Assembly (NCBI GenBank): GCA_001771185.1
Contig: METB01000001.1
Span: 375,200 to 439,199, forward strand
Source of the DNA: a candidate division Kazan bacterium RIFCSPHIGHO2_01_FULL_44_14
Lineage (GTDB): Bacteria > Patescibacteriota > Kazan-3B-28
DNA: 64,000 nucleotides
Direction of reading: 5' to 3'
Translations under genes and position numbers: made by a program
The notes under the pieces: generated by a model
Told to the model about the DNA's origin: nothing
What the model saw: the letters and a program-made list of their open reading frames with translations, nothing else
Database searches by the model: none
Shown: positions 40,705-58,577 of the stretch, in pieces
Layout of the letters: each line of letters opens with the position of its first letter
Position numbering within the stretch: position 1 is the first letter of the stretch

Positions 40705-40749
40705 GATTAGGATTTCGGTTTGTTTTTATATTGTTCCAAGGTGTCTTTT

Positions 40750-41112
40750 TTGTCATCCCGAGCGCAGTCGAGGGATCTGGCTATGAGTGCGAGACAATAC
40801 TATGTTTATATCTTGGCGAACCATAGTCGGGTTTTATATATTGGTGTAACCAATAATTTGACGCGACGGGTATACGAGCATAATCATGATTTAGTCCCGG
40901 GTTTTACACGCAAGTATAAAATTCATCGGTTGGTTTATCAGGAACATTGTGACGACGTTGAAAACGCTATTGCCAGAGAAAAACAGTTGAAAAATTGGAG
41001 ACGAGACAAGAAAGTAGCTTTAATTAACCGAATCAACCCAGAGTGGGAAGATTTGGTAGGTGTAGTAACGGGCTAGATCCCTCGATTCGCTCCGCTCACT
41101 CGGGATGACAAA
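40750..41112 (+). mobile_element. GIY-YIG element bounded by ~29-bp IRs TTGTCATCCCGAGCG..CGAGGGATCT
   Basis: The left IR (40750..40778) and right IR (41075..41112) are reverse complements. The termini match the MITE family at 34524 and 35984. Confidence 0.55.
40783..41076 (+). CDS. GIY-YIG nuclease family protein
   Basis: MSARQYYVYILANHSRVLYIGVTNNLTRRVYEHN matches the GIY-YIG core. Confidence 0.7.
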   Translation: MSARQYYVYILANHSRVLYIGVTNNLTRRVYEHNHDLVPGFTRKYKIHRLVYQEHCDDVENAIAREKQLKNWRRDKKVALINRINPEWEDLVGVVTG

Positions 41113-41266
41113 GTCGATGGTTGATTACAATAACAAAGGGGCTACTCGTCTAGTAGCCCCAAGCCTTATTACGTGAAGGACGTTGGCGTTGCCAACCTAT
41201 AGGATTCACCTCCTTGGTTTTGAGAATAAGGAACATCGGCTTACGCCAGCTTGAATGTAGCACGGG

Positions 41267-42034
41267 TTAGTTCCCATAACCAGGCAGGATAGAGGGGAGG
41301 TTGTAAGTAGTGCCGGCTGAACTGCCGCCAGTTGATTGGTTGGCATATTGTGGTCGGGCGACTTTGAGGACTCCACCTGAAGGGAACTCCATTAAAACCC
41401 AGATTCTGGTTTCAGCGACAATCTCGGCGTTGTAATTGGTTTGATAATTGGCAATCGCATTAACATCTTGGATCGGGGCGTAGGCCAAACGGTCTTGAAG
41501 CCAGGTGGTCTCGTCGCCAGTTTTAGTATTGAAACTGCGGATAATGTCGTTCGAGAAAATCACTAACACATTAGTCCCTTTTTGATACCAAGCCCGACCA
41601 CCGTCCTGATAAGCGTAAGCCAAATCGCTATTGGCGGGTGGGAGGATTCCTGCCAAGGCCGATGGTTGGTAGATCTCGGTATCGGAGCGGTCGCTTAGGA
41701 AGTAAGAGGCGGTTGGTGCAGTGAGAGTGTCGGAAGGTGATGAGTAGAAAGAGTCGGCTGGGCGATAAACTAAGTTAATAGTGGCCTTGGCGTCTTGGCC
41801 AATCTTGGCCGGGTTGTCAGGGAGATGAATATCCAGAAACCCCGGGGTAGGTACTTGGATAGCAGGGCCAGTAACCGAAGTATTTTGTAATAATGACGCC
41901 AAAACATCCGATTGAGTAGATTGAGAATGGGCTGGAGCGGGCTGGTAGTTGCGGACAGCGGGCAAGACCTCGGCGAAGACCAGGCCGAGGAGAAGAAAGA
42001 GAGCGAATAAGTTACGGAGTTTAACCATAAACAA
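41267..42034 (-). CDS. Secreted hypothetical protein (signal peptide)
   Basis: N-terminal signal sequence MFMVKLRNLFALFLLLGLVFA. A hairpin at 41140..41162 may act as a terminator. Confidence 0.45.
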   Translation of the reverse strand: MFMVKLRNLFALFLLLGLVFAEVLPAVRNYQPAPAHSQSTQSDVLASLLQNTSVTGPAIQVPTPGFLDIHLPDNPAKIGQDAKATINLVYRPADSFYSSPSDTLTAPTASYFLSDRSDTEIYQPSALAGILPPANSDLAYAYQDGGRAWYQKGTNVLVIFSNDIIRSFNTKTGDETTWLQDRLAYAPIQDVNAIANYQTNYNAEIVAETRIWVLMEFPSGGVLKVARPQYANQSTGGSSAGTTYNLPSILPGYGN

Positions 42035-42082: not shown

Positions 42083-43732
42083 TTATTCGGCAATCACTCG
42101 TAAAAGTTCATCTAGGGTAGTAATCCCGGCAGAAACCTTGGCTATCCCATCTTGGGCCAGAGTGGTCATCCCTTGGCTGACAGCAAGTTGCTTAATCTCG
42201 TTTGAAGATGCCCCGGAAAGAATTTTGGCTTGAATTTCAGGGGTGACTTTAAGCAGTTCGAAAATTCCAATTCGTCCACGGTAGCCGGTACCATTACATT
42301 TATCACAACCTTTGACGAGGGGAACCGTGGCGGGGATTTGAGCATCGGGCAGGATTGATTTGATTTTGGCAATGAAGATTGTGTCTGGCGCAGAAGTAGC
42401 AGTTTTGCAATCGGAGCAGATTTTGCGGACTAACCGTTGAGCAATAATTAACCTAAGAGCGTCGGCGAATAAATTGGGTTTAGCATCCAAGTCCACCAAC
42501 CTCGGGATGGCTCCAGCAGCATCGTTCGTGTGAAGAGTGGAGAGAACTAGGTGGCCGGTCAGCGAAGCATTAACAGCAATGTCAGCGGTTTCCTGATCTC
42601 GGATTTCTCCGACTAAAATAATATCTGGGTCTTGGCGAACGATGGCTCGCAGAGCGTTAGCAAAGTCATAATTTTCTTCTGGGTTAACTTGGGTTTGGGT
42701 GACGCCGTTGAGTTGGTACTCGATTGGGTCCTCGACAGTGATGATTTTAGTGGTAGGAGAGTTGATAGTGTTCAACACAGCGTAGAGAGTGGTGGTTTTC
42801 CCGGAGCCGGTTGGGCCAGTATTCAAAATTAGACCATTGGGTTGGTGAATGGCTTCATCGATAACTTGGCGATCACGTTGGCTTAATCCTAATTCATCTA
42901 GGGAAACAAACTTCCCCGTTTGGGGGAGTAGCCGCATAACCACTGATTCGCCATATTGGGTTGGCAAAACAGAAACTCGGATGTCGTAATGTTCGTCCTC
43001 GGCGGTGATAGAAAAACGGCCGTCTTGAGAACTTTCTTTAATATTTAATTTGAGAGTAGCCAGGAGTTTAATTCGGCTAAGAACGGTTTCGTGGGTGGCT
43101 TTGGGCAGGGTGGCAATGTCTTGGAGGACGCCGTCCAATCGATACCGCAACCGGACATCGGTTTGAGTTGGTTCGATATGAATGTCGGAAGCCCCTAAGC
43201 CAGTGGCTCCAGCAAAAATCAATTCAACCAAATCGCTGGTTGAGGTCTTGGCTAACTTGGTTTGAAAATTTTTCAGGTCGGTAAGTTTGGTAATCGAAGT
43301 CCCGGGTTTGCCGAGATTGATGGAGGTAGTAATTGGGTGCCCATCCTTGGGAGCGAAAGTGTCATAGAGGCCGATGACATAGCGTATTGATGAATCAGAC
43401 ACCAGGACTGGTTGGAACTGATATTCATCCATGGCGTCTAGTTGTTTAAGCGCAGTTAGCGTAGCGGGGGAGTTGGGGTTGGTGAGAGCCAACATAACTT
43501 TAGTCCCGGTTTTTTCAAAAGCAAAAATTTGAGCCGATTCAACTAACTCTTTGGGAACAATCGCAACGGCAGCCGGGTCGGGCTGAAGGTTATTTAAGTT
43601 TCGATATTCTAAATTGAACTGGGCTGCCTGGGTTTTGGTCAGTTCTTCTTCCTTAGTCCGCTGAAGATGCTTCACGGTCTGTTCTAATGGAGCTTGATTG
43701 TCGTCTGGTTGGGGGTTAGATTGATTAGTCAT
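42083..43732 (-). CDS. pilB: Type IV pilus / type II secretion assembly ATPase (PilB/GspE family)
   Basis: Walker A (GPTGSGKTTT), Asp and His boxes, and a tetracysteine CxxC...CDKCNGTGY zinc motif. N-terminal GSPII_E_N-like domain. Start set at MTNQSN. Confidence 0.8.
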   Translation of the reverse strand: MTNQSNPQPDDNQAPLEQTVKHLQRTKEEELTKTQAAQFNLEYRNLNNLQPDPAAVAIVPKELVESAQIFAFEKTGTKVMLALTNPNSPATLTALKQLDAMDEYQFQPVLVSDSSIRYVIGLYDTFAPKDGHPITTSINLGKPGTSITKLTDLKNFQTKLAKTSTSDLVELIFAGATGLGASDIHIEPTQTDVRLRYRLDGVLQDIATLPKATHETVLSRIKLLATLKLNIKESSQDGRFSITAEDEHYDIRVSVLPTQYGESVVMRLLPQTGKFVSLDELGLSQRDRQVIDEAIHQPNGLILNTGPTGSGKTTTLYAVLNTINSPTTKIITVEDPIEYQLNGVTQTQVNPEENYDFANALRAIVRQDPDIILVGEIRDQETADIAVNASLTGHLVLSTLHTNDAAGAIPRLVDLDAKPNLFADALRLIIAQRLVRKICSDCKTATSAPDTIFIAKIKSILPDAQIPATVPLVKGCDKCNGTGYRGRIGIFELLKVTPEIQAKILSGASSNEIKQLAVSQGMTTLAQDGIAKVSAGITTLDELLRVIAE

Positions 43733-43742
43733 GGAGAATAAT

Positions 43743-44657
43743 TTAAGAAGTGGGGAGGGCTTTGCCAAGGACGATGGCTTTATCGAGGGCGCCTTCGATG
43801 GGGAAGTTTTCGAGTCGGACTCGAGCGACATTTTCCCATAGACCGGCCTCTTCTACTGTAGCAGAAAAGGCGAAGGTCAAAGATGCGGTTGGATTATTGT
43901 GGGTAAGCTCGATCCGGTATTCTCCCATCCAGCCACTGCCAATTAATTGGGGCTGACCAGTTTGACCAACCGTGAGGGAATCACTGCCTTGGATGTGATT
44001 GAGTCCGCGTGGGAGTAAATCGTCGACAACGAAAACGGCTACGACTTGGTCGCCACTGGCGCTGTCTGGGACATTGCTTACACTCACGCTAACTTCAATT
44101 TTGAAATCAACCTGGGTTTGGCCATCAGCCAGAGCATCAACATAGTGAGTGTAACTGCCGTCAGGAGCCAACCGAACTTGTTTGGAGATACTGTAAGTAA
44201 ATTTCAATCCGCTAACGGGTTCCTCTTGTCCTGGTTGAGTAACGACTGGTAGGCCTCCGCTATTGAGGTCAGTTGGGTCAGTCCCTAAAATAATTTCAAT
44301 TCCATCAGCGACACCATCGCCGTCAGTGTCGGGGTTGGTTGGGTCGGTTCCGGGATCATCGAGGCCGTTGTAAATGCCGGAGTTATTTTCTTTGGAGTTT
44401 TCAATTCCATCATTGTCGTGGTCGCCGGGGCCGGTAACTTTTGGGCTAACCGCGGGAGTGGTTTCGTCGGGGATGTCTAACTCCCCGGCTGGATTGGTGA
44501 TGTCGGTATCGCGTTCAGCCATGGTCCGAGTACCCCAGCGCTCTTCGATCCCGGAAGTTTCTCTAATAAAAGTCGCCCCCAAGGTTGCGATAATAACCAC
44601 ACTGACAATGGTGGCGCCGGTGACGATGGCAAAACCAGATCCAACCCCGATACGCAT
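43743..44657 (-). CDS. Surface protein: N-terminal TM/pilin-like anchor, Ca-binding TSP3-like Asp repeats, C-terminal DUF11-like domain
   Basis: N-terminal MRIGVGSGFAIVTGATIVSVVIIATLG is hydrophobic (G|F but no Glu at +5). DPTNPDTDGDGVADG repeat. C-terminal ...VAVFVVDDLLPRGLNHIQGSD...GWMGEYRIEL... resembles DUF11. Confidence 0.4.
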   Translation of the reverse strand: MRIGVGSGFAIVTGATIVSVVIIATLGATFIRETSGIEERWGTRTMAERDTDITNPAGELDIPDETTPAVSPKVTGPGDHDNDGIENSKENNSGIYNGLDDPGTDPTNPDTDGDGVADGIEIILGTDPTDLNSGGLPVVTQPGQEEPVSGLKFTYSISKQVRLAPDGSYTHYVDALADGQTQVDFKIEVSVSVSNVPDSASGDQVVAVFVVDDLLPRGLNHIQGSDSLTVGQTGQPQLIGSGWMGEYRIELTHNNPTASLTFAFSATVEEAGLWENVARVRLENFPIEGALDKAIVLGKALPTS

Positions 44658-44659
44658 AA

Positions 44660-46450
44660 TTACTCCCCGGTTAGATTACGCAGTTCGGCTAATTGGGCAG
44701 GGTCAGAAGTGACGATTTTATCTTCCACATAACTAGCCACAACTTTAATGGCGGCATGGTTAGTGCCGGCAAAGAAAAGTCCTTCACCAACTTCGGACTC
44801 GAGCAGTAGGAACTTTTCACCTTGGGTCAAATTGAAGGTCTCGGCGACGACATCAATCGAAGCCGGGGACTGGCGGAAGAGCAGTTGAAGAGACGAGTTG
44901 GCTACCACTGCCTTACCATATTTGGAGCCCAAAAAGTCCTCTACATCCTGGGTAATAGTGGTGAGCCCGAGATAATATTTGCGAGCTCGTTTGGCGATAC
45001 TATATAAGAATTTAGCCGAGTCCTCGTATTGCATTAAAATCCAGGCCTCGTCGATGATGAGCAGACGCTTTTTAATATTGAAGCGGATTTTATTCCAAAT
45101 ATAATTCAACACCACATACATAGCGATGGGGCGAAGGGCGTCCTCCAAATCCCGAATATTGAAGACAACTAAACCGGTGTCTAAATCAAAATTGGTTGGT
45201 TTGTTGAAGATGCCAGCGAAAGTCCCGCGGGTATATTTGCTAAGTCGTTGAGACAAACTTTCGGCTCCCTGCATGTTGTCCAAAACATTTTGCAAGTCCT
45301 CCATCGTCGGCATTGGGTTTTTGTGGGTGGCGGTGTCGTTGGTGATATCTTTGAGGGCGTAGGTTTCATGTAAGGCCTTGTCCATCAAAGCATCTTCTTC
45401 GGGAGTCAAAGTCCCGACCAGCAAATTCATCAGGCCAAGCAAAGTGACGATGGCGGAGCGAAGGACTTTTTCGCCGTCAGCATCGACGCCCAGGTCGGGC
45501 AGGTCAAATGGATTAATCCGTTTGTCGCTGTTGAGCGAGATAGAAATAAATGAACCGCCAATGGCATTGGCCAGGGTCTCGTATTCATTCTCTGGATCGA
45601 TGACAATCGTGTCAGTTCCGAACATCGCACTGCGCAAAACCTCGAGTTTGACCGCATAGGACTTACCTCCACCGGACTTGGCGAAGACAGCCATGTTGGC
45701 ATTTTCTAAATCGAACCGGTCAAATAAAATCAGCGAATTGTTGTGCCGGTTGATACCATACAGAACACCTTTGCCGGTAGTCAGGTCAACCGAAGTGAAG
45801 GGGAAAGTGGTAGCAAGTGAGGAACTGGTCATGTTGCGGACAATATCTAACTCATCTAAGCCCAGTGGCAAAGAAGAATTAAAGCCCTGCTCCATTTGAA
45901 GTAAAGCATGCTTGGTGTAAACTAATTGGCCGCCCAGCGTGGTTTCAATGTGTTGGGTAATCGATTCCAACTCTTCGGGGGTCTTGGCGTAGATGGTGAA
46001 ATACAAACCATAATGGAAGAACCGTTCCATCCCGCGTTGCAGACGGTCACGGAGTTCCTCGGCATCTTGGTAGGCGACTTCCAGTTCGGGGTCGCGAACA
46101 GCGCCCTTTTCTTGGTTGATTCGAAGCGAGGACTCCATTTCGGCCACTTTCCGGCGGAGCGTATTCATAATGGCAGTACTGTCAATCGGGTAGATGTGCA
46201 TCGAAATGTCCAAATCAACATCATAGTTAATGACTGGGTTGAGCCAGTTGGTTTCAATATATTGAGGGTAGGTGAGCACAAACAGGGTTCGGACAAACCG
46301 GCCATTGAGCTCAATGGAATCATTTTTGATTTCCATAGAAGCCGGGGCAACCAAATCACGAATTGAAACTAGGCCAGCTTCAAATTGTTCGACGGCTTTG
46401 CGGGCGTCAGCTTCTTTTTGGGGCTTAGGTTTTCTTTTGAATAGAGCCAT
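44660..46450 (-). CDS. VirB4/TrbE-family type IV secretion ATPase
   Basis: P-loop FAKSGGGKSYAVK and the VirB4-typical Walker B LLIIDEAW. About 600 aa, comparable to the Gram-positive/CPR VirB4 class. Confidence 0.7.
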   Translation of the reverse strand: MALFKRKPKPQKEADARKAVEQFEAGLVSIRDLVAPASMEIKNDSIELNGRFVRTLFVLTYPQYIETNWLNPVINYDVDLDISMHIYPIDSTAIMNTLRRKVAEMESSLRINQEKGAVRDPELEVAYQDAEELRDRLQRGMERFFHYGLYFTIYAKTPEELESITQHIETTLGGQLVYTKHALLQMEQGFNSSLPLGLDELDIVRNMTSSSLATTFPFTSVDLTTGKGVLYGINRHNNSLILFDRFDLENANMAVFAKSGGGKSYAVKLEVLRSAMFGTDTIVIDPENEYETLANAIGGSFISISLNSDKRINPFDLPDLGVDADGEKVLRSAIVTLLGLMNLLVGTLTPEEDALMDKALHETYALKDITNDTATHKNPMPTMEDLQNVLDNMQGAESLSQRLSKYTRGTFAGIFNKPTNFDLDTGLVVFNIRDLEDALRPIAMYVVLNYIWNKIRFNIKKRLLIIDEAWILMQYEDSAKFLYSIAKRARKYYLGLTTITQDVEDFLGSKYGKAVVANSSLQLLFRQSPASIDVVAETFNLTQGEKFLLLESEVGEGLFFAGTNHAAIKVVASYVEDKIVTSDPAQLAELRNLTGE

Positions 46451-46532
46451 CCCGTTAAAAATTTTTACTAATGTATGTGTATTGCATCTTGGTGGTCTGT
46501 TGTTTGTGCCCGTTTTCTAGATTTTTAACGGG
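46451..46532 (-). promoter_or_regulatory. Conserved ~85-nt leader element with 12-bp IR (CCCGTTAAAAAT / ATTTTTAACGGG), copy 1
   Basis: About 85% identical to 47234..47320. Ends ...TAACGGG directly at the ATG of the VirB4 gene. Confidence 0.5.
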
Positions 46533-46540
46533 ACAGGTAG

Positions 46541-47233
46541 TTATTGTCCTGGGTTGGTATCCTTAATATGCTGGATGACTGAAACATCGACATTACTGAC
46601 CGAAAATAGTTTTTGTCTCCGGGCGGTATCAGTATTGTAGGTAGTATAGAACAGCTCAATCAATTCTTGAGTGTTGAGTTGGACATTATGCAACCCCAGC
46701 CCAGCCAGACCAGACGAGGCCAAGGAAGTCCGTTCCATCAACTTGGTTTTAACTTCCTCAAATCGGCCACCCAATGAAACCGGCCCACTCTTTTTACCAA
46801 AAAGTCCAGCCAGAAATCCGCCGGTAGGGAGTTCGACGCCGGTATCGTAGGGGATAACTAGATAGAAGGTTTTACTCATGATGTTAGCGACACCGATGAG
46901 TTCGCGGACGAAGTTGGTGTACTCGGTAGTTTGAGTTCGAAGCAGGTCATTGGTTTGTTGACGGCTAAGGGTGTCGAGTTGGGCCAAGTAATTGTCCAAA
47001 TCCAACATTCGGGACTGGACAACGATTTGGATTGGGAATCCTAGGCCGTTGAGAAAGGCCTGGTACTGCTGCATCATCGCTTCTTGTTCGTCCCTGGATT
47101 TGAGGTTGAAGTTGATGGCGTTGACCATCAATACAGTCCGAAATCCGCCGGTCTTTAAAATCACTATCCCATCGCGGACTTCCTTGATAGGTAGGTACTT
47201 TTGAGTACTGTTGGGCTGCTTTGATTTAGCCAT
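46541..47233 (-). CDS. VirB4 N-terminal-domain paralog (no ATPase domain)
   Basis: LPIKEVRDGIVILKTGGFRTVLMVNAINF... parallels the VirB4 N-terminus SIRDLVAPASMEIKNDSIELNGRFVRTLFVLTYP... The same leader element precedes it. Confidence 0.4.
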   Translation of the reverse strand: MAKSKQPNSTQKYLPIKEVRDGIVILKTGGFRTVLMVNAINFNLKSRDEQEAMMQQYQAFLNGLGFPIQIVVQSRMLDLDNYLAQLDTLSRQQTNDLLRTQTTEYTNFVRELIGVANIMSKTFYLVIPYDTGVELPTGGFLAGLFGKKSGPVSLGGRFEEVKTKLMERTSLASSGLAGLGLHNVQLNTQELIELFYTTYNTDTARRQKLFSVSNVDVSVIQHIKDTNPGQ

Positions 47234-47320
47234 CTCGTTAAAATTTTTTGTCAGTGTAAGTGTATTGCATCTTGGTGGTTTGTTAGTTTTGCCCGTTTTC
47301 TTGATTCTCTTGGGACAGGT
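47234..47320 (-). promoter_or_regulatory. Conserved ~85-nt leader element, copy 2 (IR degenerated)
   Basis: Shares ...gtgtattgcatcttggtgg.ttgtt.gtt.tgcccgttttct... with copy 1. Ends TAACGAG directly at the ATG. Confidence 0.5.
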
Positions 47321-47322
47321 AA

Positions 47323-47871
47323 TTATTCGTTTTCTGCTAAGACATCTTCTACATCCAGACCGGCTTCGTTAACGAGAGAGGGATTCTCATTTAAATTATT
47401 TACTTGAGTTGTCACCGCCTCCTGATCGTCCGGCTTAATTGTACCACCCGCATCTAAGACCCGAGACAGCTTTTCGAGCTGACTTTGCAATTCTTTGCCT
47501 TGTTTGCGTTCTTGAAGTTCACTTTTAGTGTCTTTGATATCGGTGGCTGACACTTTAATTGTTTCTACCAACTCGCGGGGTTCTTTATGCCACACTCGTT
47601 GTTTATTGGCCAACCAAAACTTGAACAAGTTGACGATAAAGACACCAAAGGGCTGTCCGTTAACTTTGCTAAAAGCAAAGGCAATGCTCAAAGACCCGGC
47701 TACTAAACTGATTAGGACAAACTCGATGCCATAGAGATACTGCATCGCGTAATACTGGTAAGCGATGAAGACGATTGAGGCGCCAGCCAAGACATAAAGG
47801 AATTGCTTTAGGGTCAATGGGCCGACGAGCCGGTCTTCACGGGTAACGTCTTGTGGGATTTTAGCAGGCAT
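47323..47871 (-). CDS. Small two-TM membrane protein, possible VirB3/PrgI-like T4SS component
   Basis: Two adjacent hydrophobic helices followed by a charged tail. Called mainly on position between the VirB6-like and VirB4-like genes; homology was not verified. Confidence 0.3.
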   Translation of the reverse strand: MPAKIPQDVTREDRLVGPLTLKQFLYVLAGASIVFIAYQYYAMQYLYGIEFVLISLVAGSLSIAFAFSKVNGQPFGVFIVNLFKFWLANKQRVWHKEPRELVETIKVSATDIKDTKSELQERKQGKELQSQLEKLSRVLDAGGTIKPDDQEAVTTQVNNLNENPSLVNEAGLDVEDVLAENE

Positions 47872-47880
47872 AAGATTTGA

Positions 47881-50607
47881 TTAAGATTTAGGTTTGTTAG
47901 TGATAATACTATCCAAGGTTTTTAGGACTCGGTTGACATCCAATTCCCTGCCATCTAGTTCTAAACTGTTTAAGTCGAAATGGTCTAGCGCTTGAGTGAT
48001 GTTTCCATTTTGAGTAGCATTAAGAACCGAGTTGCGAGATTCCTGGGCGGCCTGGATGGGGTCGGCAGTGTTTTGGAGTGCGGTCAAGATTTCCTGACGA
48101 AGTTTAGGGATTTCATTCTCAAGGTAATCTTTCGGAGAATCCCCGGTTGGAGACGAGGTCTTGTTCAGAGAGGCCGTCACATTGGAAGTGTATTGTGACT
48201 GGTTATTGATTTGAGCATTGATAGCCGACTGTTGCTGATTAACGCTTTGTTCGGCCGCAGTCCGGTTGGCCTCTTCGGTGGCTTTTTGCTGTTCAAGCCC
48301 AGAAATCTGTTGGTTATTTTCGATGATGGTTTTAATACTAGTTAAAGCATTGGGACTGGTGGCCCCAGCGGCAAAGATTCGGGCGTTGTTGATGTCTTCG
48401 GGTTTAATACCGGATGATAATACCGATGCCAGTTTTGCCGAAGTTGTTTCGTCAACCCCGATACCTTTGAGATAGTCATTGGTTTTTATCTCTCGAGCCG
48501 CTTGGTTCGTAGTTGTTGACGCGATGTTATCAAGTTCCTTCTTTTGGTCTGAAGTTAAATTGTTGACAGTGGCTTTGTCGGTATTGGAGGACAGTTCGGA
48601 GAGATTATCGCGGAGACCGGGATTATCAACCAATGCTTTTAGGGTTTGAGGGTCTAATTGTTTGCCGGCCTCTACGGCACGGTTAGCGGCTTCTTGCTCG
48701 GCAGTGCTAAGACCCTTTAACCCGTCAGCGGCTGTTTCGGTTTCTTGGCTTAGTGCCTGAATGGCCGTATTTAATTTATTCAGGCCGTCCTCTAGTGACT
48801 TTAGCGTGGCAGAACTTTTGGCCAGGTCGCCATAGTTGGCCCCGCCTGCACCAGAAACGCCAGCGGTTTCGTCGTCTGCTTCACCGGATTTGGGTGGGGC
48901 ATATTTGCCTTTGCTCCAGCGATATCCGGCTTGTTTTAATAAATCATCTCCTGTCCGGCTTTCCATACTTCCATCTGGTTGCAGTGTTTTAAATGGTTGG
49001 TCTAATAGATTATTGTGATCTTTTTCGATTTGTATCCGTTCCTCTTTATCACGGGTCGCATTGCGGACACGGCGCATAACCGCTTGGGCAATCTTAAGTT
49101 TGCGGGCGTTCAAAAGGGTAGGGCTAGCACCGTATGCTTCGTAGGCCTCCTTAAGTTCGTCGGCAGCGCCCTTACCAGTTGGTTCGGTTTTCATTTTGAC
49201 ATCAACCATGTCGGCCAAGAAGGAGTTGTCGCGGTCAGCCGCTTGGTCACGCTTAGAGACCAGACCTGGGTTTCTGTTTTCAAATTCTAATTTCAGGGCG
49301 GTCTTCTCGGCTGAGCTTAAGTCATCCATCGAACTTGCACCAAACCGAGGTAATTGGCTTTCGATATATTTGTTTTCCTTGTTGTCGTAATCGGCTAGAG
49401 TGCGCTCATCTCCGGGCTGGAGTTTATCCATTACACCCTTGCGAGTAGCCAATTCACCGACTTTCTTGGCCGACTTCACGCGGGTATCAAGCGCGGCCAT
49501 ATTGACATCCATTTGCCGGAGCAGTCCGCCGGCCTTTGAACCCTTAAATCCTTCCATACCCAATTGCCAGTATTTACCGGCAGTAGCAGAGATAGCTTTA
49601 CTGGAGGCCTGGAACGGTTTGTTGGCCAGGTCAGTCATAAACTTGGTGGCTGCGCTGATTGGGACTTTTAGCGTTCCTGGTGTGTTGGCGGCGGCTAGCA
49701 TTAAAGCAATTACGACGATGTAGTACATAAAGGTCGCAGCACTGGCGCCACTGTTTAATCCAGCATTGCTACCGGCAGGGCTAGTAAATGAATCGATGAT
49801 TAATTGTCCGATCGAGTTGGTGTCACTGGGCTTTAACATACTGGCTATGCCTAAAAGCAAGTAGGCGAGTGGCAAAACCAGAATCCAGCGAATTAAATCG
49901 CTCCACCAAGTTTGAGCCATACCCTGCAAATCCTTGTGGGGGAGCAAGCTCAAAGCAAACATGATTGGGCCAAAGATGGTCAAAATAATTAGACGGACTG
50001 CTCGCTCAATCAAAACAAACGCCAGTCGGAAGAAAACATAGGTGCTAATGGCGTAGACGGCCAACATCATGAGAGAGAGGCCGATGTATTTTACGAGGTC
50101 GACGTCATAACCTCCAACGACTTTGGGCGAGAAGAGCAGGTTAATGTCATTAACGAAGGTTTCTATCTGAGATGGCTCAAATCCAAGCATAGTGTGAGCG
50201 GTGTTTTTAAGAGCGTCGCCCACTTCAATCAATACCAATACGATTTGATAACTTAAGTTGGCTAATGCTACTGAAGTAATCAGCCCAGTAATGGCTTTTT
50301 TAAAGTTGTATCCACCCGAGCGGGTGATAATCATGATGGCGAAAGCCACCAATGCCAAGAAGAAAAGGACATTAGCTGCCATTGTCATAACTCCCCAGGC
50401 CTGGAGTACTGCCGGGCTACCAAGAATTAGATTCTGTCCCTTAAGGACCACTTCATTGATGATCCATAGCAAAAAACTATTAATCATCGCCAAAAATGCT
50501 TCAATGCCGATAATTAACCCCCCAACGATGACCTTGAGTACTGGTTGGGCAATAATACCTACGCCAAGTCCGAGAGCTGCCAGAAGAGTGATTGTAATCG
50601 GATCCAT
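47881..50607 (-). CDS. VirB6/TrbL-like polytopic membrane protein with ~550-aa hydrophilic coiled-coil/low-complexity C-terminal extension
   Basis: At least six TM helices in the first ~350 aa, then an Ala/Gln/Asn/Ser/Thr-rich coiled region. Start set at MDPITITLL. Confidence 0.45.
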   Translation of the reverse strand: MDPITITLLAALGLGVGIIAQPVLKVIVGGLIIGIEAFLAMINSFLLWIINEVVLKGQNLILGSPAVLQAWGVMTMAANVLFFLALVAFAIMIITRSGGYNFKKAITGLITSVALANLSYQIVLVLIEVGDALKNTAHTMLGFEPSQIETFVNDINLLFSPKVVGGYDVDLVKYIGLSLMMLAVYAISTYVFFRLAFVLIERAVRLIILTIFGPIMFALSLLPHKDLQGMAQTWWSDLIRWILVLPLAYLLLGIASMLKPSDTNSIGQLIIDSFTSPAGSNAGLNSGASAATFMYYIVVIALMLAAANTPGTLKVPISAATKFMTDLANKPFQASSKAISATAGKYWQLGMEGFKGSKAGGLLRQMDVNMAALDTRVKSAKKVGELATRKGVMDKLQPGDERTLADYDNKENKYIESQLPRFGASSMDDLSSAEKTALKLEFENRNPGLVSKRDQAADRDNSFLADMVDVKMKTEPTGKGAADELKEAYEAYGASPTLLNARKLKIAQAVMRRVRNATRDKEERIQIEKDHNNLLDQPFKTLQPDGSMESRTGDDLLKQAGYRWSKGKYAPPKSGEADDETAGVSGAGGANYGDLAKSSATLKSLEDGLNKLNTAIQALSQETETAADGLKGLSTAEQEAANRAVEAGKQLDPQTLKALVDNPGLRDNLSELSSNTDKATVNNLTSDQKKELDNIASTTTNQAAREIKTNDYLKGIGVDETTSAKLASVLSSGIKPEDINNARIFAAGATSPNALTSIKTIIENNQQISGLEQQKATEEANRTAAEQSVNQQQSAINAQINNQSQYTSNVTASLNKTSSPTGDSPKDYLENEIPKLRQEILTALQNTADPIQAAQESRNSVLNATQNGNITQALDHFDLNSLELDGRELDVNRVLKTLDSIITNKPKS

Positions 50608-50836
50608 AGTTTTGGTGTTTATTTTTTTGCTGGTTGAGTTGAGCCAAATAAGATTAGCCACCCAACAAGTAATTATTTAATTATAGCAAAAAATAGGGAA
50701 TTAGTCAAGAGGGAACTGGGCGGGGCTAAAATGGCCCAGAAACCGTTATATCAGATACGAAGTTTAGTCAAAGACCGGGAAATCAGGCATAATAGTAGTA
50801 GTTTACAAATCGGTAAAAAGAGGATGTAATCTTGCG

Positions 50837-52282
50837 ATGATAGAGGAGCCGCAAAATCAGTCCCAGAGCCCAAAATCGCCCCAGGATGAATTAGACGAAT
50901 TGTTGCGCCAAAGTAGAGCGACTCGGCCAATGTCTGGTATTAAATTGCCGGACAACAAACCAACAGGGGATCGGAATTGGTTGGGGGTAGGTATTGTCGG
51001 GCTGGCAGTTATTTTGGTTGCCGGGACGGGGTATTTGTTATTGAGCGGAATCAAATTTGGGACTGGAGAGGTAATTTTGGGGCTTAATCAGAGTCCGGTG
51101 GCTCTGTCGATAGACGATAAAAGTTACGGTCAGGTCAGCAACGGCGACATGATTCGCTTAAAAGTTGGTCAACATACATTGGTTTTGACCAGAGAGGGCT
51201 TTTTGAATTTGACCGAGATGGTGGAAGTCAGCCGGAGTCAGCAGTTGGCGATTAATTTGGAACTACTGCCAATCCCAGAAATCCAAACTGTGATTGACCA
51301 CCCGGTTAGTTTTGTGCGATTGAATCAAGACGGCTCCGAGATGGCTTATCTTGATTCCCAAGATAAGAGTTTTAAAACCATCAAACTGGATGATTCAAGT
51401 ATTGCTAACTTGTTCAAAGGCAGTTTCTCTGGGGTGACTGATGTGATGTGGTCACGAGTTGGTCAATCGGCGTTGGTGAAAATAACCGGGCGACCGACTT
51501 TGTCGAATATGTTGGATAATCGAGCGGTTCAGGGTCGGTATATCCCGCTCGGGACTCCGGGCGGTCGGCCCGATCAGGCCCCGGCCAAATCGAACGGAGT
51601 AAGCACTTGGTTATTTGACGATGACCGCAAACCGGCTAGCGGTTGGCAGCCGATTTTATTAAGCGATAGTGTTCGGGAGGCAGTATTTAGTGCGGACGGG
51701 AGTTCAATTATTTATATTTACGAAACCGCCGATGGTGAATACTCGCTAGTGCGGGCTTGGCCAGACGGGTTGGAATGGGAACGGCTGATTGTGGAGATGC
51801 CTCGACTGGAAACCCCGCAATTTACTTGGGGACCAGACGATAGATATGTATTAGTTCAGACCGCGGGTAAATTAATGCTCTTGGATTTAATAGCCAAAAC
51901 ATTGTCTGAACCGTTCCCGGATTATGCGGCGGGAAGCCAATTTGCTTTTTCAACTGATGGGACAAGAGTGGCGTATTTAGCGAAGTCAGAGGATGGCACT
52001 ATCCGGTTGAAGACCTATGACTTTTTGTCTGGGGTGGCGGTGGTAGTGGAAGGTCTGGCTGTGAATGGTGAAACCAGTATGGTTTGGACGACTGGGAATT
52101 CGCTAATGGTGGCGACTGGCGGACAGTCGTTTGAACTGGTTAATGTAGAACGAGGGACTCGGATGACAATTCCTCTGGCCGGGAACACGACCAGTTCTCA
52201 AATAGAGCGGATGGAATACAGCAAAACCGCAAAAGTTTTGATGTTGGTAACCGATGCGGGGGTATCGATGATGAAAGTGTGA
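50837..52282 (+). CDS. Hypothetical membrane-anchored protein with beta-propeller-like repeats
   Basis: N-terminal TM helix. Repeated ...DGS.I.Y... / FSTDGTRVAYL... segments reminiscent of TolB/PD40 blades. Divergently oriented to the T4SS-like operon. Confidence 0.4.
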   Translation: MIEEPQNQSQSPKSPQDELDELLRQSRATRPMSGIKLPDNKPTGDRNWLGVGIVGLAVILVAGTGYLLLSGIKFGTGEVILGLNQSPVALSIDDKSYGQVSNGDMIRLKVGQHTLVLTREGFLNLTEMVEVSRSQQLAINLELLPIPEIQTVIDHPVSFVRLNQDGSEMAYLDSQDKSFKTIKLDDSSIANLFKGSFSGVTDVMWSRVGQSALVKITGRPTLSNMLDNRAVQGRYIPLGTPGGRPDQAPAKSNGVSTWLFDDDRKPASGWQPILLSDSVREAVFSADGSSIIYIYETADGEYSLVRAWPDGLEWERLIVEMPRLETPQFTWGPDDRYVLVQTAGKLMLLDLIAKTLSEPFPDYAAGSQFAFSTDGTRVAYLAKSEDGTIRLKTYDFLSGVAVVVEGLAVNGETSMVWTTGNSLMVATGGQSFELVNVERGTRMTIPLAGNTTSSQIERMEYSKTAKVLMLVTDAGVSMMKV

Positions 52283-52353: not shown

Positions 52354-54351
52354 ATGGCAGATGATAATGACACCAAGAACCAGAGACGGTTAAAAGTAAA
52401 AAAGATTCGTGAACGGATTGAACGATTGGTTCAACAGTCGCGAATTAATTTGGATTTTTATGCAAGTGTGGCTGCCCAACTAGAACGGGCGAATAAACAA
52501 ATTGATGATGGTCAGCGTCAGGATGAATTTAATCAAGAGGATTTGGCGGATCAGCGAGTCAAGAATCAAGCGGGTGACGAGGACGAAGAAGAAGAGAATG
52601 AAGAGCAGCCCGAGCAACCAGAGCCCGAGCAACCAGAGCAGCAAGAGCAGCAAGAACGGCAAGAGCCAGAACAGCCCGAAGACCAACCATCTGCACGGAA
52701 AGACCAATTAGAAAAACTACGTCAGGCCAGAGAGACGTATCAGAAAGTGCAGAAAGCGGCCGAGACAGCCAAAAAAATGGCCGAAGCGGCTAAGTCAGCC
52801 AAGACGGTGGCGACGGTCGGAGCATTTTTAGCGGAAACCTGGTGGATATGGGTAATCTTATTGGTGTTACTATTACTAGTTGCTTTAGCTTATATGATTT
52901 TTGGTGGGGCGGGGAATAAGGTGCTAGATATGGCTGGTGGTTCTATCCCAATTGCGATGGACTATCAGAATAAAGAACATCAAAAACTGGTAGCGGATGT
53001 AGAGGGGCTAGTAAAAGATGGGGCATTATTAATGAACGAGAATTCGGCTAAGGACTTGTCTTGGCAATCAGATAAAAATGGTAAACCAATTCATGCGTTG
53101 GACTGGCGAACGATGGAAACCTTAAGTTATTTGGCCGGTAAATATAAAATTGGAGTAAAGTTTTTGAAGAGCAATGGACCAGATATGACACGGCGTATGC
53201 CAGTGGCCAAGGGGGAAGAAAATAGCGAGCCGATTGACGCACCGTCGGCGTATAGCTTCGGCCAAGGAATTGCGATTACAAGTATTGGGGTAACTAGTTT
53301 AGAATTAACTGAAGCGATGGGGTTGCCCCAACCTGTTCCAGTACAGGTGAATTGGCAGAAGCAAGTGGTAGAAAAAGCGCTAAGGCCGATTTATGAGCAA
53401 CTGCAGGTAGATGCTAGAGCATTATTTAATGCAACGGTGCAGGCGAATGCTCAAGCTGACACCGATGAAAAGGGGTTGGAGGTGTTGGCCAGAGCACATG
53501 AACAAGCAGTGACGGACTCGGCCAAGAATCCTCAGGCCAAAATTAAAGATAATTATATGATAGCTAAAGAAGCGCTTGATAATCTGATTATTAATCTTGA
53601 ACGAATGCGTGAGGTTGGGAAGTGTTGGGAGGAAAAACCATGGTTGGACCCGCGGGCTTGTCGATTTAGTACTAAGGCCAGTGGATATTTAGGCGGGGCA
53701 AGCGGCCTTTTTGAAAAATCTGGTACCGCGTTTATCGATGGTTGGGGAGAACAAACGGATAGTGGGCCAATCCATCAGGGGCTGTGGGCCACTTTTAGGG
53801 CAATGCAAGTGGCGAACATGTTGGGATGGAATGGGAACGAAGAAGAGATTGATTTGTGGAAGGCCTACGAGGCCAGACAAAATATTCGTAAGCTTGCGTT
53901 GGATATTTTACGGATGCCAGTGGCATTGGCTGGTGAAGGGCAGGATTTTAATGCGGACTTGGTGGCTAAACAATTAATCATTTATAGTCCAGAAGATGAC
54001 TTAGACAATGGGTTGCCTGATTTTGATGTCTACCCTAGAGGGACAATCGCAGTCGATGAGGGGGGAGTTGGTTATGACTCAACTGGGCACGATAATGTGA
54101 TTGATGTGCGGGATAATCATTTTATGTCACTACCAATTGATGGCGGTATATTTAGTAAGCTTGGTACTGTTTTTATCTATAAGACCGACAGCGCTGGGCA
54201 AATTGCCAAAGAGATACTTGAATGGGCAGCGGCCAGTTTTACCCTTGGAGGGAGTAAGATGATGGATTTGTGGGATGGGGGAGGAATTGAGAAACCAGGT
54301 GAAGAAAGGGTTAAAGTTTCTTATAGAAGTTTTGTCCATATTGGGTTTTGA
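52354..54351 (+). CDS. Hypothetical protein: N-terminal coiled-coil, acidic (E/Q/P) QPEQPE repeat tract, TM helix, ~450-aa C-terminal domain
   Basis: EEEENEEQPEQPEPEQPEQQEQQERQEPEQPEDQ low-complexity tract and TM segment WWIWVILLVLLLLVALAYMIF. Confidence 0.4.
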   Translation: MADDNDTKNQRRLKVKKIRERIERLVQQSRINLDFYASVAAQLERANKQIDDGQRQDEFNQEDLADQRVKNQAGDEDEEEENEEQPEQPEPEQPEQQEQQERQEPEQPEDQPSARKDQLEKLRQARETYQKVQKAAETAKKMAEAAKSAKTVATVGAFLAETWWIWVILLVLLLLVALAYMIFGGAGNKVLDMAGGSIPIAMDYQNKEHQKLVADVEGLVKDGALLMNENSAKDLSWQSDKNGKPIHALDWRTMETLSYLAGKYKIGVKFLKSNGPDMTRRMPVAKGEENSEPIDAPSAYSFGQGIAITSIGVTSLELTEAMGLPQPVPVQVNWQKQVVEKALRPIYEQLQVDARALFNATVQANAQADTDEKGLEVLARAHEQAVTDSAKNPQAKIKDNYMIAKEALDNLIINLERMREVGKCWEEKPWLDPRACRFSTKASGYLGGASGLFEKSGTAFIDGWGEQTDSGPIHQGLWATFRAMQVANMLGWNGNEEEIDLWKAYEARQNIRKLALDILRMPVALAGEGQDFNADLVAKQLIIYSPEDDLDNGLPDFDVYPRGTIAVDEGGVGYDSTGHDNVIDVRDNHFMSLPIDGGIFSKLGTVFIYKTDSAGQIAKEILEWAAASFTLGGSKMMDLWDGGGIEKPGEERVKVSYRSFVHIGF

Positions 54352-54609: not shown

Positions 54610-55095
54610 ATGGCAGACCCAAAGCAAGAAGTTGGCACTCTCCGATATGAATGGACTGCGCTTGAATTCCCTCGGGTGGAGCGGACTAGAGTTTGGTATT
54701 TGGTGGCTGGGTTAGTTGGGCTTGGATTGTTGGCGTATACCATATATACCAGGCAATGGGCGGGAACAGCTGTCGTGCTAATGATTGGGGTGGTAGTTTA
54801 TCTGATGGGGAGAGTTGTCCCAAGAACTTTTGTTCATCGGTTAACAAGCCGTGGGGTAGAAGTGGGAGATAAATTTTATCCGTACACAGAGTTGAGAGCG
54901 TTTTGGGTGATTAATACCTCTAACAGTCGGACATTAAATCTGATATCAGCTAAGAAATTTAGTTTGCTTTTAACTTTACAATTAGAAGGGGCTGATGTAG
55001 AAAAGGTAAGAGAAGTTTTGTTGGAGTTTTTGCCAGAAGAGCCCGGGCGAGGCGAAGATGTGATTGACCGGGTTGGCAGGTTCTTTCGGTTTTAA
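54610..55095 (+). CDS. Hypothetical membrane protein (two TM helices, bPH/DUF304-like)
   Basis: Start set at MADPKQ, preceded by a GGGG Shine-Dalgarno-like stretch. Two adjacent TM helices. Confidence 0.4.
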   Translation: MADPKQEVGTLRYEWTALEFPRVERTRVWYLVAGLVGLGLLAYTIYTRQWAGTAVVLMIGVVVYLMGRVVPRTFVHRLTSRGVEVGDKFYPYTELRAFWVINTSNSRTLNLISAKKFSLLLTLQLEGADVEKVREVLLEFLPEEPGRGEDVIDRVGRFFRF

Positions 55096-55174
55096 TTATT
55101 ATGCGCCCGCCTGCAACGCTATGCGTAGCATTGCGGGCTGGCCCGTAGCTCTGTGGGCTGGCAGGGGGTTAGGA

Positions 55175-55426
55175 GTGTATTACATCTATGTTTTATTTTC
55201 AAGTAAAGATACGCACTTCTATGTTGGTTATACGAAGGATTTAAGGAAACGGGTAGAAGTGCACAACGTCGATGCTGTGGACGCCACAAAGTCACGCCGA
55301 CCGTTAAAACTGGTGTATTATGAGGCATGCTTGTCGGAGAACGCGGCGTTGGTGCGAGAGAAGCAACTTAAAACAGGGTTTGGTAGAGCGTATTTAAAAA
55401 CAAGGATTAACATTATGCGCCCGTAG
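55175..55426 (+). CDS. GIY-YIG nuclease family protein (probable GTG start)
   Basis: (V)YYIYVLFSSKDTHFYVGYTKDLRKRVEVHN matches the GIY-YIG core. The track ORF extends upstream to 55064 but the domain starts here. Stop codon overlaps the tRNA-Arg 5' end. Confidence 0.5.
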   Translation: MYYIYVLFSSKDTHFYVGYTKDLRKRVEVHNVDAVDATKSRRPLKLVYYEACLSENAALVREKQLKTGFGRAYLKTRINIMRP

Positions 55427-55493: not shown

Positions 55494-55521
55494 CGTCAAT
55501 TTGGTGGATTGAAAATAAAAT

Positions 55522-56205: not shown

Positions 56206-56246
56206 GGTACAATAGAGGCGTTAGGCAGTTTAATATTTTTGATAAA

Positions 56247-56541: not shown

Positions 56542-56865
56542 TTATTGAATCAATCCAATAACTACATTAACGATGGCATATGACAGACCGATAATGACCA
56601 CACCCACAAGGGCGTTGGTAATCATGGTTTTGCCTGATTCAGCACCTTTGGCGCCACCGGTGATATAGGTTATACCACCAAACACCAAATATCCAACAGC
56701 GATGATGCCGGCAATGCTAAACACCCAAGTTATAAGTGCACCAATGGTGGCTTGGATGGAGGTGCCTTCTGTTATATCGGTAACATTACCACCTTGGGCG
56801 AATGCTGGTAGTGCAAGCCACAAAGAAGTGACGATACCAGTACCGATTGATAATACCTTTTTCAT
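56542..56865 (-). CDS. VirB2/TrbC-like pilin candidate (signal peptide plus two hydrophobic helices)
   Basis: Signal peptide MKKVLSIGTGIVTSLWLALPAFA|QGG. Two glycine-rich hydrophobic segments separated by a short GGAKGAESGK loop. About 107 aa. Paralogous to the next gene; both end LIQ. Confidence 0.4.
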   Translation of the reverse strand: MKKVLSIGTGIVTSLWLALPAFAQGGNVTDITEGTSIQATIGALITWVFSIAGIIAVGYLVFGGITYITGGAKGAESGKTMITNALVGVVIIGLSYAIVNVVIGLIQ

Positions 56866-56904
56866 ATTACGACCCTTTAATTATTAATATGAACCGAAGT
56901 ACCT

Positions 56905-57225
56905 TTATTGTATCAAACTGATAGCCAAATTAATAATAGCGGTGGCAAGCCCAACAATAATCCCACCGACAATTGTGGCGGTAATGGTTTTCTTCCCGGC
57001 TTCGGCTTGACCAGTAATATATTGGATGCCGCCAAAAACCAGCATTAATACCATAATTAATCCGGCAATCCCCAGGATGTAAACTTGGAGTCCTTCAACG
57101 ATTGAAATAACTTTGTTAATCAGACCGGCAAGTTTGCTCATGCCGATTCCGGCTCCAACAGAAAGACCGGCGTTATTTGGTTGGGCATAGGCCGTCAGTA
57201 CCCATTTGGTAATCCAATTTATCAT
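56905..57225 (-). CDS. VirB2/TrbC-like pilin candidate (paralog)
   Basis: Same architecture. ...VFGGIQYITGQAEAGKKTI... aligns with ...VFGGITYITGGAKGAESGKTMI... in the neighbour. Confidence 0.4.
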   Translation of the reverse strand: MINWITKWVLTAYAQPNNAGLSVGAGIGMSKLAGLINKVISIVEGLQVYILGIAGLIMVLMLVFGGIQYITGQAEAGKKTITATIVGGIIVGLATAIINLAISLIQ

Positions 57226-58577
57226 TCGAGTTTGTTGATGTCTCTGACGGCTACATCAATGGCAACTTCGGGACTAATTTTGTCTTTAACTACACTATCA
57301 ATCATTCGGCCAAAAATACTTTCGATCTCGGGAGTGTTCTTACGATACCAGGATTTGGCATAGTCAATTTGTTGAGCGACTGGAGCGTAGTAGCGGCGAC
57401 TGGTCATGGTATCTTGAAGTTCTTTGCTGGCCGGGATGTGTCCGGTGGCGCGGAAGAAAGCACTTTGAGAATTGCGCTTGGTCATAAATTTGATAAAGTC
57501 CCAGGCCTCATTGGGATGCTGACTATTCTTAGAGACGGTCTCGCCCCAATAGTTAGCGATGGTGATTGGATTTTGGATTTGGCGTTGAGGCAGGACGGCC
57601 GTTTCGAATCGAAGTTTGGGAGCAAACTGTTGGATTAGCGGAACATGATAAGCGTAACCAAACATCATGGCGGCTTTCCCTTCGATAAAGGCCTGAACAT
57701 CGGAGGGGAAGACCCGACTGCCATCGGCATTTTTGGCATCAGTATAGGTATAGACGGGAGACCCTGGGGTAGCAAATTGAGTGTAGTAACTTAAGGCGTT
57801 TTGACTGGCCATAAAGGGTGGGTTGGTGTCAGGTGCTGGCAGATTAAAAGTCGCGGTGGTATGATCGGCCGAGGTCATTTCGGCACCATATTGCATCATT
57901 AGAGCAGCTAGGATATCAGCGGCTCGGGGGATACCATCATTACCGCCAAGGGTGATGGCGGAACGGGTAATATTGCCCCGGCTATCTTTTTCGGTGAGTT
58001 TGGGAATCAGATCAACTAGGTCCTGAAGCGTCCGTGGCGGTTGTTTGATTTTCTTGGCACTAAAGATGTCGGTGTTATAGAAGAGCATTAGGTCGTCTAT
58101 ATAGTAAGGTACTGCGTAGATGCGATTGTTAGAGATAAAGTCGGTTTGAACGACATCGGGGAAGAGATTTCGGTAATCCTTAACACTCATCAGACCGGCC
58201 GGCATCGGAGCAATCTGATTAATCTGGTAGGGGAGCCAGTCATTATGGAGCATGAACATGTCCGGGCCAGCACCGTCAGCGATTAATTTGATCAGATTCT
58301 GCTGATAGTCGTAAATAGTTTCGCCGGGCTTTAAACTGATTTTCTTTACCTCGATGGTAATGTTCGGGTGTTTACTGGTGTAACTGTTAATAAGTTCGTC
58401 GAGGGCATCGCTCTCATCCCATAGTCGCCAATACTCCAAAGTAATTGGTTCATTGGAAATGACCGGAGGCGCTTCGGTAGTATCACTGCTACCGCCTCTT
58501 TTGCACGACAAAGCAGTCAGGGAGACCCCAATTAAAAGGGCGAGAAAAATCGAGTAGAGACGGTGGCGGTTGGTCAT
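57222..58577 (-). CDS. ABC transporter extracellular solute-binding lipoprotein (family 1, sugar-type)
   Basis: Lipoprotein signal (...LTALSC). About 450-aa periplasmic binding protein fold. Confidence 0.65.
   Translation of the reverse strand: MTNRHRLYSIFLALLIGVSLTALSCKRGGSSDTTEAPPVISNEPITLEYWRLWDESDALDELINSYTSKHPNITIEVKKISLKPGETIYDYQQNLIKLIADGAGPDMFMLHNDWLPYQINQIAPMPAGLMSVKDYRNLFPDVVQTDFISNNRIYAVPYYIDDLMLFYNTDIFSAKKIKQPPRTLQDLVDLIPKLTEKDSRGNITRSAITLGGNDGIPRAADILAALMMQYGAEMTSADHTTATFNLPAPDTNPPFMASQNALSYYTQFATPGSPVYTYTDAKNADGSRVFPSDVQAFIEGKAAMMFGYAYHVPLIQQFAPKLRFETAVLPQRQIQNPITIANYWGETVSKNSQHPNEAWDFIKFMTKRNSQSAFFRATGHIPASKELQDTMTSRRYYAPVAQQIDYAKSWYRKNTPEIESIFGRMIDSVVKDKISPEVAIDVAVRDINKLE

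Follow-up and report, generated by a model that had tools for sequence, protein, structure and literature searches.

A probable Patescibacteria-type secretion locus near the chromosomal origin of a Kazan-clade bacterium, with a PilB-type ATPase gene in the same gene block

The 64-kb stretch of DNA analysed here (64,000 nt of contig METB01000001.1, positions 375,200 to 439,199; below, the window) contains a block of seven close-packed, co-oriented open reading frames (ORFs) on the minus strand, running from 50607 to 41267. Judged by its sequence, the locus is with good confidence a chromosomal, origin-proximal type IV secretion system (T4SS) of the Patescibacteria type, derived from monoderm MPF-FATA conjugation machinery, in the genome of a Kazan-clade bacterium belonging to the candidate phyla radiation (CPR). 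It was regarded as a further example of an already described system and not as a new machine, the type having been published (PMC10633639, PMC12102498). In Southlakia epibionticum, the T4SS (SEML1_0006-0019) was found by transposon sequencing (Tn-seq) to be essential for epibiotic growth (Wang et al. 2023, Cell; PMC10633639), with pilins present and relaxase and coupling protein absent (PMC10633639). In a survey of 3035 genomes (Quinonero-Coronel et al. 2025, Microb Genom; PMC12102498), the VirB4 proteins of Patescibacteria formed a monophyletic clade inside MPF-FATA; TrsD, PrgI, VirB6, and VirB2-like pilins lay near virB4, relaxases were nearly absent, and the locus was often close to dnaA (PMC12102498). 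Reviews call the function of the patescibacterial T4SS unknown (PMC12857230, PMC11665869). The initial annotation had likened the locus to systems linked with epibiotic life in Saccharibacteria, and this held. The locus matched the Patescibacteria T4SS of PMC10633639 and PMC12102498; the organism was a Kazan-clade bacterium and not a member of Saccharibacteria. The features of the block, in the order of the minus strand, are as follows.

50680..50708, minus strand: promoter-like site (TTGACT, 17 nt, TG-TATAAT; 11 of 12 matches) 5' of the VirB6-like gene; consensus match only
47881..50607, minus strand: extended VirB6-like protein, 908 aa, with about seven transmembrane (TM) segments in residues 1-310 and a C-terminal extension of ~570 aa
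47323..47871, minus strand: PrgI/VirB3-like two-TM protein, 182 aa (PF12666 PrgI)
46541..47233, minus strand: TrsD-type protein, 230 aa; homolog of the N-domain of full-length VirB4
44660..46450, minus strand: VirB4 ATPase of the MPF-FATA type, 596 aa, without the N-terminal domain (CD1110 family, Pfam, and PDB matches)
43743..44657, minus strand: surface protein with a membrane anchor, 304 aa, carrying TSP3 repeats and, at the C-terminus, a weak DUF11/Ig-like domain; starts 2 nt after the virB4 stop
42083..43732, minus strand: PilB/GspE-type type IV pilus extension ATPase, 549 aa, with MshEN N-domain, Walker A/B, His box, and two CxxC motifs
41267..42034, minus strand: conserved 255-aa protein with an N-terminal hydrophobic segment (signal or anchor); last gene of the unit
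41138..41160, minus strand: terminator-like hairpin (9-bp stem with 6 G-C pairs, T-rich tail) 3' of the 255-aa gene; consensus match only

VirB4 matched the NCBIfam CD1110-family model with 396 bits (cutoff 325), as well as P-loop_TraG, AAA_10, and CagE_TrbE_VirB of Pfam, and its best solved relative was the Gram-positive VirB4 4AG5 (E 2e-45), with TrwK of R388 behind (8e-8). The DEAW Walker B motif by which the ATPase had been recognized as VirB4 was present as LLIIDEAW at residues 463-470, and the CagE_TrbE_VirB and CD1110 matches agreed with that assignment. The alignment to the CD1110 model covered only positions 177-730 of 752, and the 230-aa ORF upstream covered the first ~120 positions of the VirB4 models; because of this division, the 230-aa ORF was taken as TrsD. 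In NCBIfam, it matched VirB4_plasma at positions 98-233 (8.6e-10), CD1110 at positions 2-118 (5.8e-6), and TrsD/TraD (7.2e-5). Its orthologs carry PF26593 TraC-like, and it precedes virB4 in 35 related loci. By these matches the protein is a separate homolog of the VirB4 N-domain known as TrsD and not a loose paralog, which bore out its earlier description as a VirB4 N-domain homolog. The 182-aa protein, previously described only as a small two-TM protein, matched PF12666 PrgI above the cutoff (E 1.2e-9, 39 bits against 27) and contained the two TM segments; its gene adjoins trsD and virB4 in 34 related loci, with PF12666 found on the orthologs.

The 908-aa protein supplied the polytopic VirB6 homolog that is found in clusters of the Patescibacteria clade. 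The polytopic N-terminus and the long C-terminus reported for it were both observed, whereas the description of the C-terminus as low-complexity did not stand: the ~570 residues had a sequence entropy of 3.94 bits and were hydrophilic, all-helical, and poorly conserved even inside the Kazan clade. The best structural match of the protein was TrwI. It gave no direct match to Pfam TrbL, with homology reached through intermediates only. Profile searches of the family against PDB sequences gave only coiled-coil noise from the C-terminal extension, and the VirB6 homology was set by structure and intermediates instead. The protein shares the polytopic N-terminal membrane domain of VirB6/TrbL type with extended VirB6 proteins, such as RvhB6 of Rickettsiales, and with TrwI/VirB6 of R388, and it resembles the extended VirB6 proteins (PMC12857230) in its large hydrophilic C-terminal extension. 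It differs from them in the lack of a direct TrbL match and in the all-helical, poorly conserved nature of the ~570 C-terminal residues.

The gaps in the seven-gene block were, in order, 9, 89, 90, 2, 10, and 48 nt, and the promoter-like site upstream of the VirB6-like gene had the top score in a scan from 41 to 58.7 kb. The tight spacing, with this single strong promoter-like site before the first gene and a single strong terminator-like hairpin after the last, suggests that the seven genes form one operon, in the order VirB6-like, PrgI/VirB3, TrsD, VirB4, TSP3/Ig-like protein, PilB, and 255-aa secreted protein. All six ORFs listed in the initial annotation were found on the minus strand where it had placed them; the unit it had drawn from them was kept and enlarged, as the gene of the 255-aa secreted protein (41267..42034) belongs to the same unit. 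The gaps upstream of virB4 (46445-46523) and trsD (47228-47306) were filled by a direct repeat of 80-90 nt, the copies of which were 85-88% identical and each ended at the start codon of the following gene. These two copies were the only ones in the window, no further copy was present there or in the other fetched loci, and the Kazan relatives had 2-nt gaps at the same positions. One copy can fold, by prediction, to sequester the virB4 start codon; a conserved RNA structure was rejected for the repeat, with one copy folding (z -2.4) and the other not (z +1.5).

The pilins of the system were found outside the block. The window was inspected for them because a Kazan reference locus had two T4SS_pilin genes beside a gene for a solute-binding protein (SBP), and a corresponding unit was present ~6 kb from the seven-gene block and ~10 kb from virB4.

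57222..58577, minus strand: orphan solute-binding lipoprotein (SBP_bac_1/8, Pfam match)
56905..57225, minus strand: VirB2-like T4SS pilin, 106 aa, with two TM helices (PF18895 T4SS_pilin 29.8 bits, cutoff 26.6; TrbC/VirB2 2.3e-5)
56542..56865, minus strand: VirB2-like T4SS pilin, 107 aa; has two TM helices as well as a signal peptide (PF18895 35.3 bits, cutoff 26.6; TrbC/VirB2 1.1e-5)
56357-56327, minus strand: terminator-like hairpin after the pilin gene 56542..56865

These two genes (56542-57225), 6 kb away, had been overlooked when the apparatus was called minimal, a term that no longer applies. The start of the 106-aa pilin gene overlapped the stop of the SBP gene upstream by 4 nt, and the SBP gene is apparently co-transcribed with, and translationally coupled to, the two pilin genes. 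The order of SBP followed by pilins was also seen in a Kazan locus (L081), which has orthologs of the 106-aa pilin, and in a Berkelbacteria locus (L015), the SBP of which was 27% identical to that of the window (E 1e-51), and not in the other CPR loci examined. The wider unit at 56542-59879 consists of overlapping genes for HSP20, an NTP_transferase, the orphan SBP lipoprotein, and the two pilins, and contains no ABC permease or ATPase genes.

Comparison with related loci, which were fetched and examined by tblastn and a hidden Markov model (HMM) census, placed the system among CPR bacteria. In all, 589 genomic places were confirmed to encode VirB4 relatives, nearly every one of them on a CPR-labelled contig; the top 80 were 53-82% identical, and the closest (75-82%) belonged to metagenome-assembled genomes of the Kazan clade. 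VirB4 was assigned to the Patescibacteria clade by similarity ranking. The same layout was present in seven distinct Kazan-clade loci, one of them on a 602-kb contig, and the whole block was syntenic in all Kazan-clade loci examined, together with the genes of two neighboring proteins of 481 and 665 aa and the valS-tsaD-femAB-murE flanks. The syntenic origin-proximal block measured ~30 kb with housekeeping genes included. In other CPR classes, VirB4 was usually accompanied by TrsD and PrgI and often by pilin arrays and VirB6-like genes.

The genomic setting was that of a chromosome. All window ORFs of at least 110 aa were scanned with Pfam and NCBIfam, and none belonged to a relaxase, VirD4, or VirB7-11 family, as had been claimed from the first reading of the sequence; nor was a coupling protein, an integrase, or a compositional island found in the 64-kb window, where GC was uniform (0.45-0.49). 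Apart from a few ORFs without a match, the other ORFs were housekeeping genes, including RNase J, PNPase, H+-PPase, glycosyltransferases, yidC, rnpA, dnaA, dnaN, recF, fpg, polA, murE, femAB, tsaD, and valS. With these flanks and without relaxase, coupling protein, and integrase in the window, the proposal of a reduced chromosomal T4SS-like system rather than a conjugative element was retained. The dnaA gene is at 22516, and virB4 is the 19th coding sequence from it, 22 kb off. The minimum of the cumulative GC skew, at ~19-23 kb beside rnpA, yidC, and dnaA, suggests oriC at this place; the T4SS operon lies on the minus strand of the right-hand replichore, and its transcription would thus be head-on to replication.

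In its composition, the locus resembles the T4SS of the Patescibacteria clade: it is chromosomal, close to dnaA, and in a monoderm CPR host, and it combines an MPF-FATA-like VirB4 with TrsD, PrgI/VirB3, VirB6, and VirB2-like pilins, without relaxase or coupling protein in the cluster. Compared with the S. epibionticum system, it belongs to the Kazan class instead of Saccharimonadia, it has only two pilins, 6 kb off in the SBP-pilin unit, instead of an in-cluster pilin array, and no lysozyme/peptidase (VirB1-like) gene follows virB4, this place being taken by the TSP3/Ig-like protein, PilB, and the secreted protein. With the staphylococcal trs system of pGO1/pSK41 and the C. difficile CTn (CD1110), it has in common the CD1110-family VirB4, the separate TrsD, the PrgI/TrsC-type VirB3, and the absence of VirB7, VirB9, and VirB10 from a monoderm architecture. 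Those systems are borne on a plasmid or an integrative conjugative element (ICE), carry relaxase, type IV coupling protein (T4CP), and oriT, and have no VirB2 pilin; the locus here is the reverse, being chromosomal, with VirB2-like pilins and with no relaxase or T4CP in the window.

From these parts, a working model of the machine can be drawn. VirB4 hexamers would dock on the membrane through PrgI/VirB3, TrsD would supply the missing VirB4 N-domain in trans, and VirB4 would power both the assembly of a VirB6-based translocon and the building of a conjugative-type pilus by polymerization of the VirB2-like pilins. The cell wall would be crossed, out to the surface, by the long helical C-terminus of VirB6 and by the TSP3/Ig-like protein. 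Such a machine would serve contact-dependent exchange with a host bacterium, of protein or other cargo, and not plasmid conjugation. As PilB is encoded, and probably co-transcribed, at the end of the operon, the T4SS would be expressed along with attachment pili. In the sole genetically tractable CPR bacterium, the patescibacterial T4SS is essential, and each well-resolved variant helps to define its core as opposed to lineage-specific accessories. The present locus extends the described T4SS to the little-studied Kazan clade and does not settle what the T4SS transports. PilB, SBP, and PEGA neighbors are not mentioned in the published survey (PMC12102498). The neighbors absent from it, namely PilB, the TSP3/Ig-like protein, the SBP-pilin unit, and the PEGA-domain and 665-aa membrane proteins, are candidate factors for adhesion or for spanning the wall and are offered as leads, not findings.

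The identity of PilB was well supported. It matched Pfam T2SSE (E 6e-120) and MshEN, reached 494 bits on TIGR02538 as against 54.7 bits on the VirB11 model TIGR02788 (cutoff 250), and was colinear with the solved PilB structures 5zfr and 5tsg (~1e-110). With type IVa PilB (Geobacter 5TSG, Myxococcus 3JC8) and GspE, it shares colinearity over the full length, the MshEN domain, Walker A/B, the His box, and the tetracysteine zinc motif. It is not of the VirB11 type, since VirB11 has ~330 aa and neither the MshEN N1 domain nor the zinc motif, whereas the protein here has 549 aa, MshEN, and two CxxC motifs. The initial annotation was thus right about the PilB-type ATPase and not about its start at 43831, as the start is most likely 43732, giving 549 aa as in the orthologs. 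The locus differs from those of type IVa PilB/GspE in that pilC, pilM, pilT, and pilin genes are not alongside and that PilB forms the 3' part of a T4SS operon. This situation had been called unusual; however, PilB genes without adjacent pilC, pilM, and pilT were also found in other CPR. The claim that PilB was fused to the T4SS could not be upheld either, the functional link being unproven and the protein a canonical type IV pilus extension ATPase.

A different reading takes PilB as an integral ATPase of the Kazan/Berkelbacteria T4SS, a recruited analog of VirB11 (an ATPase that monoderm T4SSs lack) that aids VirB2-like pilus assembly or secretion in a hybrid of T4SS and type IV pilus; this was considered unlikely. 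PilB and VirB11 are members of one ATPase superfamily, which counts for such a role, as do the position of PilB in the apparent operon, close-packed 10 nt past the preceding gene, its adjacency to the virB4 unit, kept throughout the Kazan clade even where PilB identity falls to 50%, and its weak match to the VirB11 model (54.7 bits). Two observations both favor an integral PilB and weigh against the preferred reading of an ordinary pilus PilB. In the 64-kb window, Pfam scans and a pilin-motif scan found no pilC, pilM, PilN/O, pilD, or type IV pilin gene. In the Berkelbacteria locus L015, the genes for PilB, a five-gene VirB2-pilin array, SBP, and a PEGA protein all lie downstream of virB4, and PilB stands beside the pilin array, 5 kb from virB4, in another order and orientation; this proximity could reflect selection for linkage. 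Further points weigh against the main reading of the locus: the separate pilus served by PilB is putative, the window having no pilus genes besides pilB; the VirB6 assignment depends on modest structural scores (Foldseek E 0.05) and transitive homology; the conserved 481-, 665-, and 255-aa neighbors carry no assigned T4SS role; and no VirB8-like or VirB1-like component was identified at the locus. Against an integral PilB stand its full pilus-ATPase architecture, with 494 bits on the PilB model against 55 on VirB11, and the wider distribution of the gene. Related PilBs in L085 and L086, 46-49% identical, hold the position beside valS-tsaD-femAB-murE with no T4SS within 10 kb, no PilB was found within 10 kb of virB4 in ~70 other CPR loci, and in a second Berkelbacteria locus virB4 was followed by a VirB1-like hydrolase, the 5 kb available downstream containing no PilB. 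Outside the clade, the nearest PilBs (Moranbacteria, Paceibacterota) are lone genes with housekeeping neighbors. In F-type T4SSs, VirB4 suffices for pilus building, which also counts against an integral PilB. Synteny in the Kazan clade extends equally over the whole ~30-kb origin-proximal block with its housekeeping genes, so that the conserved PilB-T4SS adjacency is not specific evidence and carries little weight. PilB is therefore probably next to the T4SS through lineage-wide gene order, and the favored, unproven reading is that it is most likely an ordinary extension ATPase of a type IV pilus or competence pilus that is co-expressed with the T4SS. It is equally doubtful that the T4SS of Kazan and some Berkelbacteria gained an accessory set made up of PilB/GspE as a VirB11-like second motor, the TSP3/Ig-like protein, and the SBP-coupled VirB2-like pilins; if true, PilB as second motor would make a T4SS/type IV pilus hybrid not described before.

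Two other readings concern the system as a whole. The T4SS might work inward, taking up DNA or nucleotides like ComB of Helicobacter, with PilB as a ComGA-like motor and ComFC nearby. A ComFC-like gene is present at 62257-62952, ComFC is directly beside PilB in L015 (33% identity), T4SS loci of the ABY1 class often have comF (PMC12102498), the idea has been raised before (PMC11665869), and CPR bacteria are generally unable to make nucleotides (PMC11665869, PMC12857230). Yet no comEC, comEA, or dprA was found in the locus, the linkage of comFC is loose (5 kb beyond the pilins and on the opposite strand), and S. epibionticum requires its T4SS but can do without comEC, so that the role of the T4SS there is not ComEC-dependent transformation (PMC11665869, PMC12857230); an uptake function appeared improbable. 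Far less probable still is that the locus is part, or a decayed remnant, of an ICE with relaxase and coupling protein outside the window. VirB4, TrsD, PrgI, and VirB6 do descend from monoderm conjugation machinery (PMC12102498), and tRNA genes are present in the wider region, but the 42 kb upstream and the 13 kb downstream consist of housekeeping genes with no integrase, relaxase, or T4CP, the GC content is uniform, and synteny of the locus with its flanks extends over a clade of class level. The CPR T4SS is moreover vertically inherited, 99% of the nearest VirB4 relatives being in the same class (PMC12102498), and the ICE reading can be taken as already largely refuted.

Among the other proteins of the block, the 304-aa surface protein is a candidate adhesin. 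It matched TSP3_bac, a family of calcium-binding repeats, with 25.7 bits (cutoff 25), and was anchored by an N-terminal TM segment at residues 3-33. Its earlier description as a DUF11 protein was not sustained, as DUF11 was below threshold (E 0.011) and the TSP3 repeat passed its cutoff instead. The protein is kept in the same position throughout the Kazan clade. The 255-aa protein had no Pfam or NCBIfam match; its orthologs, 39-46% identical, occupy the same position in the Kazan clade. Two further genes diverge from the block upstream of the VirB6-like gene.

50837..52282, plus strand: single-TM protein, 481 aa, with a PEGA domain (E 6.3e-5); divergent; syntenic with the T4SS in the Kazan clade
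52354..54351, plus strand: single-TM protein, 665 aa; N-terminus acidic, external domain of ~470 aa conserved; orthologs in the Kazan clade

A PEGA-domain protein of like size follows virB4 in L015, with weak pairwise similarity; orthology of the PEGA proteins across Kazan, Berkelbacteria, and L085 was taken as no more than suggestive, the similarity being weak and local. The 665-aa protein gave no significant Pfam, NCBIfam, or PDB match, and its AlphaFold2 model from a 5-sequence alignment was poor (pLDDT 41.5). A link between this protein and the Peptidase_C39_2 proteins of L085 and L086 was discarded, the HMM match being confined to the transmembrane segment (hhalign probability 18%).

The surroundings of the locus contained several smaller features. 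Three small genes with a GIY-YIG nuclease domain (37225-37485, 40720-41076, and 55064-55426) lie around it. As the tsaD-valS and valS-secreted-protein junctions are unbroken in the Kazan loci L081 and L084, these genes look like a small mobile family whose insertion was lineage-specific. A cluster of four tRNA genes (54465, 55417, 55647, and 56384) is situated between the T4SS neighbors and the pilin unit, and the leaders of ~93 nt and ~51 nt located 5' of two tRNA-Ser genes are duplicated (55518-55664 and 56244-56401), with 80-88% identity. The ComFC-like gene at 62257-62952, 5 kb past the pilins, encodes a double zinc ribbon and a phosphoribosyltransferase; in L015, the homolog that adjoins PilB (33% identical) is at 18958-19584.

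Some PilB loci outside the Kazan T4SS group had features of their own. Upstream of the valS-side PilB in L085 (2485-9882) and L086 (1997-9894) were genes for a Peptidase_C39_2 protein, a 148-aa protein, and a giant protein of ~1800 aa, with a lysozyme/amidase protein further upstream in L085. In Moranbacteria and Paceibacterota (L087 10001-12551, L088 10001-12640, and P0013-P0020), the PilB homologs were 780-935 aa long and showed two separate T2SSE matches, a split that possibly reflects an insertion such as an intein.

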